This document shows, in pieces, positions 9,756-39,777 of a stretch of DNA of 64,000 nucleotides; positions within the stretch are counted from its first letter, which is position 1, and every line of letters begins with the position of its first letter. Source of the stretch: an uncultured Planctomycetaceae bacterium. Its GTDB lineage: Bacteria > Planctomycetota > Planctomycetia > Isosphaerales > Isosphaeraceae. The DNA lies in assembly GCA_963833985.1 (NCBI GenBank), contig CAWIAD010000002.1, positions 3,168,001-3,232,000 on the forward strand. Direction: 5' to 3'. Both the position numbers and the translations under genes were made by a program. Under the pieces are notes generated by a model, which was not told where the DNA came from, ran no database searches, and saw nothing but the letters and a program-made list of their open reading frames with translations.

Positions 9756-9828
9756 GCCCCCATCGTCTAGCGGCCTAGGATACTTGGTTCTCAGCCAAGG
9801 GACCGGGGTTCGAGTCCCCGTGGGGGTG
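9756..9828 (+). tRNA. tRNA-Glu(CTC)
   Basis: Acceptor stem GCCCCCA/TGGGGGT, anticodon arm CTTGG-TTCTCAG-CCAAG, T-arm CGGGG-TTCGAGT-CCCCG; CCA not encoded. Confidence 0.95.
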
Positions 9829-9870
9829 CTGTTGGTTGTTCCATCGGCTAGCGACCGGAAGGGTCGTGCG

Positions 9871-39328: not shown

Positions 39329-39727
39329 TGACCGGGGAGGGGCTCGAACCCTCGACCAACGGATTAACTTGCCTCATCGGCTTTCACCGACCACCCTGAC
39401 CGCATCGAGCTGGCGCACGTATCGCGGACAGGATGTTGATGGTCTGGACTATCTCTTCGCCATCGCAGGCGTGCCGCGTCTAGTCTCTGGGGCCGGGGCC
39501 GGTGCTCCACCGGTCCCTTGCCTGCTGATTACCCAATCCCCCTGCTTTTCAGGCCATCACGCTCGCCGTTGCCGGCCACGTTGTGGCGAGTGGGCTCTGA
39601 GGGCGTCCCAGCATACTGCGGCATCCACTCGTCGCGGTTCCGCTTCTTCCCGCGCGAGGCTCCGAACGGCGCGTCCCTTTCAAGAAGCGCTCGAAGTCCG
39701 TTGCTCTACCGACTGAGCTACCCGGTC
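39329..39727 (-). tRNA. tRNA-Lys(TTT) interrupted by a group I intron (exons 39727-39694 and 39367-39329)
   Basis: Exon 1 GACCGGGTAGCTCAGTCGGTAGAGCAACGGACTT plus exon 2 TTAATCCGTTGGTCGAGGGTTCGAGCCCCTCCCCGGTCA gives a fully paired cloverleaf with anticodon arm ACGGA-CTTTTAA-TCCGT and discriminator A. Confidence 0.93.
39368..39693 (-). ncRNA. Group I intron (326 nt, no evident homing endonuclease ORF)
   Basis: 5' exon ends in U and the intron ends in G. Core elements in order on the minus strand: P TATGCTGGGA, Q AATCAGCAGG, R CAGAGACTAGA, S AAGAGATAGTCC; P3 GCCGC/GCGGC; P7 GACTA/TAGTC. Confidence 0.9.
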
Positions 39728-39748: not shown

Positions 39749-39777
39749 ACGTTAAGCTCCGGCGTCGCGTTCGTCCA
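39749..39777 (-). promoter_or_regulatory. Putative sigma70 promoter of tRNA-Lys
   Basis: TGGACG, 17-bp spacer, TAACGT, ending 21 bp before the tRNA. Confidence 0.5.

Follow-up and report, generated by a model that had tools for sequence, protein, structure and literature searches.

A tRNA-Lys(UUU) gene of the Isosphaeraceae with a likely self-splicing group I intron inside its anticodon

Positions 39329–39727 of the window (the whole stretch of 64,000 nucleotides analysed here) raise the question whether two tRNA-like halves on the minus strand form one tRNA-Lys(UUU) gene and, if so, what kind of element separates them. ARAGORN with its intron option (-i) called a tRNA-Lys(ttt) at c[39329,39727] with a full cloverleaf, an insertion between positions 34 and 35, and an intron of 326 nt (39368–39693). 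The 5′ exon (39694–39727, minus strand) comprises nucleotides 1–34, ends with C32-U33-U34, and matches the corresponding half of the uninterrupted alleles in three relatives (G075, G076, and G089). The 3′ exon (39329–39367, minus strand), placed by the same two lines of evidence, extends from U35 to the discriminator A73 and does not encode CCA. Read along the minus strand, 39727–39694 ends with ACGGA-CUU and 39367–39329 begins with UUAA-UCCGU, and the cloverleaf, the UUU anticodon, and A73 are all present as identity features of tRNA-Lys(UUU). The coordinates, strand, intron length, and U34/U35 break given in the initial annotation were reproduced exactly by ARAGORN -i, and its guess of a planctomycete host was supported. 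The gene had also been expected to be easily missed; indeed, neither tRNA half nor the intron was reported at this locus by default ARAGORN or by Rfam at the gathering threshold, and because both miss the gene, genomes of the family appear to lack tRNA-Lys(UUU) under these default procedures. An ARAGORN -i call alone is weak, because in this GC-rich genome the intron mode yields many false split tRNAs (141 calls versus 53 without introns, most of the extra ones being false). The junction and the anticodon are fixed by the three relatives mentioned above, whose uninterrupted tRNA-Lys gene has the loop CU-UUU-AA and otherwise near-identical exons.

The insert was delimited by ARAGORN -i, by an alignment of 30 homologues of the 399-nt locus (A1), and by covariation as a 326-nt group I intron without a homing-endonuclease ORF (39368–39693, minus strand). 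The 30 homologues showed no variation in the exons, in the GGAG guide, in the core, or at the final intron G; variable positions are those at the very start of the intron and the base preceding the final G (A, G, C, or T). Helices were assigned by hand from one member, and the pairs were then counted on A1. In the resulting P2–P9 fold 98.0% of 2,784 cells were paired, and 22 of the 93 pairs, three of them within the tRNA exons, showed double-sided changes. None of 500 shuffled controls was as high and slid controls reached 31–43% pairing. Its derivation from one member gives the structure an advantage over the slid controls, and relatedness is disregarded in the shuffling; it is the double changes that count as the real evidence. 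The four sequence elements (P, Q, R, and S) and the helices P3 and P7, which the initial annotation had recognised, were all recovered by the hand assignment and the covariation on A1. A group I intron at position 34/35 of tRNA-Lys(UUU) is upheld by the invariance in A1, the intronless relatives, and the covarying fold taken together.

All of the following elements lie on the minus strand. The internal guide GGAG (39660–39663) is conserved in 30 of 30 homologues and is predicted to form P1 with the 5′ exon through C32-G, U33-A, and U34·G at the 5′ splice site (30 CG, 30 UA, and 30 UG), extended by a pair between the first intron base and G in 29 of 30; being invariant, the three exon pairs give no covariation evidence. 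The loop of P1 is a hairpin (39664–39692) whose length and sequence differ widely in A1. It is followed by P2 with an A-rich loop (39628–39658; 9 pairs, 97.4% paired, two with double changes), by P3 (39623–39618 with 39477–39472; 6 pairs, 100% paired, three with double changes), and by P4 and P5 (39523–39613), which are supported by the hand fold, by A1, and by RNAalifold. P4 is invariant (UGCUG/CAGCA) and contains the P and Q elements. The P5 extension (39535–39600) consists of a P5a-like stem, a nested stem with a GNRA loop, and an A-rich bulge; all 4 pairs of helix 9 show double changes, as do 2 of the 12 in helix 10. P6/P6a/P6b (39491–39522) comprises 12 pairs, six with double changes. P7 (39487–39481 with 39451–39446), which holds the R and S elements, is 100% paired, its last pair being A-U in 21, C-G in 8, and U-A in 1 of the homologues; it has a bulged A at 39486 and a predicted guanosine-binding pair, G39485-C39447, whose role we take over from established knowledge of group I introns. 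Further downstream are a short P8 (39458–39471; 4 pairs, one with a double change), a hairpin of variable length between P7 and P9 (39393–39434), P9 with a GAAA tetraloop (39376–39391; 6 pairs, 100% paired, changes one-sided only), and the terminal (omega) G at 39368, which is invariant in 30 of 30 and whose junction is set by the intronless alleles. RNAalifold recovered P2–P6, P8, and P9 unaided, and, in preference to the named fold, it placed the 5′ exon opposite the 3′ strand of P7; this predicted pairing is a possible misfold. P10 is weak, only the G·U at its first position (G65·U) being constant and the following pairs varying, and P9.0 is not clear, as its candidate pairs are ambiguous.

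The covariance-model search that had been proposed as a check formally gave no hit: RF00028 scored 12 bits on this intron (E 2.4), below the gathering cut-off of 50. This counts against the reading without refuting it, as the threshold is a detection criterion and not a defining one for group I introns. The close homologue L040 reached 36.9 bits, and of 19 other loci nine matched the model, two of them, both same-site introns, above the cut-off (L032, 54.4 bits; L096, 53.7 bits). Two named family members, L065 and L086, had no match to RF00028 at E ≤ 1.

Splicing can be outlined by analogy with the known mechanism and chemistry of group I introns (e.g., Williams, 2020; PMC3984707). The guide GGAG would pair with C32-U33-U34, with U34·G marking the 5′ splice site, and free guanosine bound in P7 would attack after U34. 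The terminal G would then replace the guanosine in P7, and U34 would attack U35, thereby ligating the exons; CCA would be added after splicing. Once the loop is restored, the anticodon modifications at U34 and A37 would follow. The contigs of 8 of 24 listed RNA runs (X1–X4, X7, X9, X10, and X14), all from other strains, span exon–intron boundaries of relatives and contained neither transcripts of the split tRNA-Lys gene nor a spliced joint attributable to it. One joint of 39367 with 39694 in X14 (depth 2.5) was rejected, since on account of the different acceptor stem and long flanks of its contig it is taken to be an intronless tRNA-Lys of another organism.

Other readings of the locus concern the identity of the spliced product and the way in which it is made. 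ARAGORN -i assigned 18 of the 30 homologues to Asn(gtt), six to Lys, and six to other isotypes, and with only 6 of 30 called Lys these calls were left out of the junction placement. Taken at face value, the Asn calls imply that the cut lies one base earlier, that the G belongs to the exon, and that the product is tRNA-Asn(GUU). The last intron base would then be variable, whereas the G itself is invariant; moreover, the intronless alleles read CU-UUU-AA, the genome has a separate intact Asn(GUU) gene, and the discriminator at the split locus is A, so that an asparagine product can practically be dismissed. The fold could also be that of a group I intron which needs a protein helper in the cell and is not strictly self-splicing. 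Protein helpers have been documented in the splicing of several other introns of this class (PMC3984707), and the weak P10, the lack of a clear P9.0, and the competing exon–P7 pairing in RNAalifold would fit this reading. The invariant core, the GNRA loops, and the conserved P5 extension, which probably stabilises the fold, speak against it, as does the fact that no maturase candidate ORF was found inside or beside the intron, and we consider dependence on a helper unlikely. The preferred reading, in which we have high confidence, is that an ORF-less group I intron, likely self-splicing, separates U34 from U35 in the tRNA-Lys(UUU) gene and that the spliced tRNA is predicted to read AAA.

A related question is whether the cell depends on this gene, which the initial annotation had made conditional on its being the only tRNA-Lys(UUU). 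The assembly has a size of 10.16 Mb in two contigs and is 96% complete; any single-copy statement is limited to it, and a second copy could lie in a gap. Among its 53 intronless tRNAs, ARAGORN found Lys(CUU) and no Lys(UUU); BLAST revealed no second exon pair within the genome; and in an anticodon-arm scan of the same genome 8 of 81 YTTTTAA sites had a stem, none of which was combined with a T-loop. Within the assembly the split gene is the only tRNA-Lys(UUU) gene by all three approaches. AAA accounts for 9,183 of 57,907 lysine codons (15.9%) and is present in 3,465 of the 4,455 long ORFs obtained by crude calling. Under standard wobble rules a tRNA with C34 does not read AAA, and because tRNA-Lys(CUU) should thus not replace it, splicing is likely essential and the predicted spliced tRNA-Lys(UUU) is likely required for AAA decoding. 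The opposite view is that the intron is dead or the gene a pseudogene, AAA codons being decoded by a different tRNA or by a gene that the assembly lacks. The low Rfam score, the RNA contigs of relatives, in which no spliced read was seen, and the assembly, which is not closed, would agree with this view. It conflicts with the perfect exons and the compensatory changes across 30 genomes, and an intronless Lys(UUU) allele was found, by the pattern used, in none of 56 intron-bearing genomes. A non-functional locus is therefore very improbable compared with a functional, intron-bearing gene.

The distribution of the intron points to an old association with the family. Queried with the 399 nt, BLAST matched 32 of the 36 other family genomes over the full length, and the 24 genomes representing other families of this class had no such homologue. 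With a set of 60 family genomes (≥90% complete), the intron was found in 56, and three of the four others (G075, G076, and G089) carry the exact intronless allele; G092 shows neither. The search for an intronless tRNA-Lys(UUU) that had been suggested was accordingly negative for the genome itself and positive for three relatives. In an RpoB tree calculated by a quick method, G075 and G076 group as sisters of an intron-bearing genome, and G089 (92% complete, 410 contigs, partial RpoB) falls inside an intron-bearing genus; these two placements indicate two losses, and precise intron loss likely happened twice or more within the family. Intron distances followed RpoB distances (rho 0.85, reached in 0 of 2,000 permutations), the 25 genomes compared being kin and not independent. 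The intron and RpoB trees shared 8 of 22 splits, all of them shallow, and differed in 14, with one well-supported conflict (G072). Because the distances of intron and RpoB agree, the intron likely was inherited vertically, without a homing endonuclease, and its gain likely dates to the base of the family or earlier. No endonuclease was found in or beside the intron, where two overlapping ORFs lack a Pfam match.

Among the 150 of 196 matches listed for 150 other genomes of the phylum, there was no intron-type junction other than that of the window itself. Of 31 labelled records with ≥190 bits against the A1 profile, 20 belonged to Isosphaeraceae or its genera, 9 to broader planctomycete ranks, and 2 to other phyla, which points to Isosphaeraceae as the family. 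Introns and exons of the Isosphaeraceae type were seen in L040 and L111, labelled Alphaproteobacteria and Terriglobia, respectively, which are either mislabelled bins or cases of transfer. One genome (G005, 74% complete) has two intron-bearing copies, on its contigs C49 and C33, reflecting either duplication or contamination. Cultured carriers are Singulisphaera acidiphila DSM 18658, Tautonia sociabilis, and Paludisphaera soli, which makes splicing and its necessity directly testable.

The same tRNA site is also intron-bearing in Microbacteriaceae, Rhodothermales, Alphaproteobacteria, and other groups. A pattern scan of 20 of the 64 parts of a species-genome collection yielded 119 loci; in 57 of them, matching tRNA halves enclose a complete intron at the 34/35 Lys site. 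The P4 core UGCUG/CAGCA occurs in 40 of these 57 (Isosphaeraceae, other planctomycetes, Microbacterium, Agromyces, Arthrobacter, and Rhodothermales), 16 are of a compact type with 212–252 nt (Alphaproteobacteria, Microbacterium, Nesterenkonia, and Gemmatimonadaceae), and one belongs to a further, different type. Over 65 core positions, introns of the UGCUG/CAGCA type are 80–97% identical to the window intron where correctly anchored, in contrast to 58–63% for the compact type; only these identity ranges were used, as the tree of the 65 columns has poor resolution, 3 of its 40 rows were unparsed, and at least three (L033, L107, and L256) were mis-anchored. Because the two core types differ to this degree, their sequences suggest that the site has probably been invaded more than once. 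Species of Microbacterium carry either of two unrelated types at the same Lys site (L077, L131, and L132 versus L032, L042, and L059).

With respect to subgroup, the four classical tRNA introns are marked IC3 in the database cited by Williams (2020), and P5(a-d) is reported to be lacking in IC3 (PMC11835236). The Lys intron has a covarying P5 extension of about 65 nt. The hairpins P7.1 and P7.2, given as characteristic of IA2 (PMC4227781), have no room here, with only 3 nt between P7 and the 3′ strand of P3. Compared by eye with nine GISSD seed rows of IB4 (Nawrocki et al., 2018; PMC6125680), the window intron resembles them in its 4-nt J3/4, in its P4, which in the rows is mostly UGCUG/CAGCA, in the extended P5 with an A-rich bulge, in its 3-nt J6/7, and in its short J7/3 without P7.1/P7.2. 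The rows viewed are cox1, nad5, and psbA introns (PMC6125680), whereas the window intron resides in a tRNA, and its likeness to IB4 is to be taken as a lead.

Viral contigs scanned with the Q motif gave 120 loci, including many introns outside tRNAs whose P5 extension agrees in length and motifs with that of the Lys intron. These viral introns scored as high as 88 bits against the A1 profile, a similarity inflated by their selection through the Q motif. Phage introns in protein genes that share the P5 extension were seen in L220, L229, L232, L240, and L273, some of them with long ORFs inside the intron. The UGCUG/CAGCA core type was also observed on viral contigs inside tRNAs, at 35/36 of Lys(UUU) in L256/L262 and at 34/35 in L331, which has an ORF in P6; a further viral contig, L317, carries the Isosphaeraceae's own intron. 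Among tRNA introns, the cyanobacterial and plastid tRNA-Leu(UAA) intron (Leu.3Ug, IC3) is described as occupying the same 34/35 site after CUU. We take it to share the three-pair P1, the GAG guide, and the subsequent P2 with the Lys intron, and presumably the Azoarcus pre-tRNA-Ile(CAU) intron (IC3) is likewise ORF-less with a GAAA-capped P9. The Azoarcus intron lies at 36/37 and not at 34/35, and the Leu(UAA) intron differs in its host tRNA and through the P5(a-d) reported to be lacking in IC3 (PMC11835236), compared with the P5 extension of about 65 nt here.

Some relatives of the intron are associated with integrative elements. Behind an intron-bearing tRNA in L170 (G022:C3; positions 832 and 6952) lies an element of 6.1 kb, which encodes a tyrosine integrase (PF00589) and also carries a primase-like gene. 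Because its far-end repeat comprises the 3′ exon and the last ~7 intron bases, the sequence suggests that crossover may occur at the 3′ splice site of the intron. Similar orphan 3′ halves after intron-like bases were noticed in L039, L055, L117, L126, L074, and L124, and in L169 (G020:C14:327788–327857) a repeat of P9 and the 3′ exon of about 70 nt is located 2.5 kb downstream of the tRNA.

How far the locus is new depends largely on one survey, which extended the tRNA/site classes from 4 to 21 on the basis of 80,413 bacterial assemblies of January 2017 (Williams, 2020; bioRxiv 10.1101/2020.01.27.920355). In agreement with the initial annotation, a Lys(UUU) 34/35 intron lies outside the four classical classes of that work; high novelty was not borne out, as the site is common across several phyla and the list had grown to 21. 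The Lys intron fits the set, as described there, in its loop position 3 (0–7 numbering; 34/35), U at −1, terminal G, U·G wobble in P1, and usual length, and isotype, position, U at −1, and terminal G give the name Lys.3Ug in the nomenclature of Williams (2020). The complete genome of S. acidiphila carries the Lys intron. We assume that this genome is older than the January 2017 assembly set. It is quite probable that the tRNA-Lys 34/35 site is already catalogued among the 21 classes. Among the papers listed by a literature search, none dealt with the Lys(UUU) intron in planctomycetes; tRNA introns of Patescibacteria and of complete bacterial genomes have reportedly been surveyed, and that survey may cover this lineage. 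The tRNAscan-SE 2.0 paper, in the part considered, names fMet and Ile2 alone as tRNAs with missed introns. The main text of Williams (2020) names only the four classical classes and Leu.3Cg, and family-wide fixation and a non-IC3 core are not mentioned there.

The Lys intron is not a new kind of element. What may be unreported are its fixation across a family, a core that resembles IB4 more than the IC3 tRNA introns, and the integrative elements that seem to use the 3′ splice site. These points can be joined, tentatively and with rather low confidence, into a scenario in which an IB4-like ribozyme, sharing its P5 domain with phage mRNA introns, entered the tRNA-Lys(UUU) of the isosphaeracean ancestor and has since been obligatory for AAA decoding, at least two unrelated lineages independently invaded the 34/35 site, integrative elements adapted to the 3′ splice site as attachment site, and none of this has been described. 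Like the cyanobacterial Leu intron, the locus offers a clean case of an endonuclease-free tRNA intron that is inherited vertically and is only seldom, but then precisely, lost. Should its core turn out to belong to IB, bacterial tRNA introns could no longer be assumed without qualification to be IC3.

A second intron-split tRNA is present in the same genome outside the window (G000:C2:3350324–3350759, plus strand; L150:1469–1904). It has the anticodon CAU, is the third CAU tRNA of the genome, and probably is of the isotype Ile2; its intron is at the classical site 36/37 and scores 53 bits on RF00028. Because its identity to the Lys intron amounts to 63% over 65 core positions and its score on the Lys-intron profile is only 0.3 bits, the two are, judged by these comparisons, separate acquisitions. 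The split tRNA-Lys gene is flanked by a PAS-GGDEF gene and a DUF1559 gene. A consensus promoter scan returned no sigma-70 site for it; a −35/−10-like pair with a 17-nt spacer, found by eye and not returned by the scan, lies upstream of the tRNA at 39777–39749 (minus strand). An ordinary tRNA-Glu(CUC) is encoded elsewhere in the window at 9756–9829 (plus strand).
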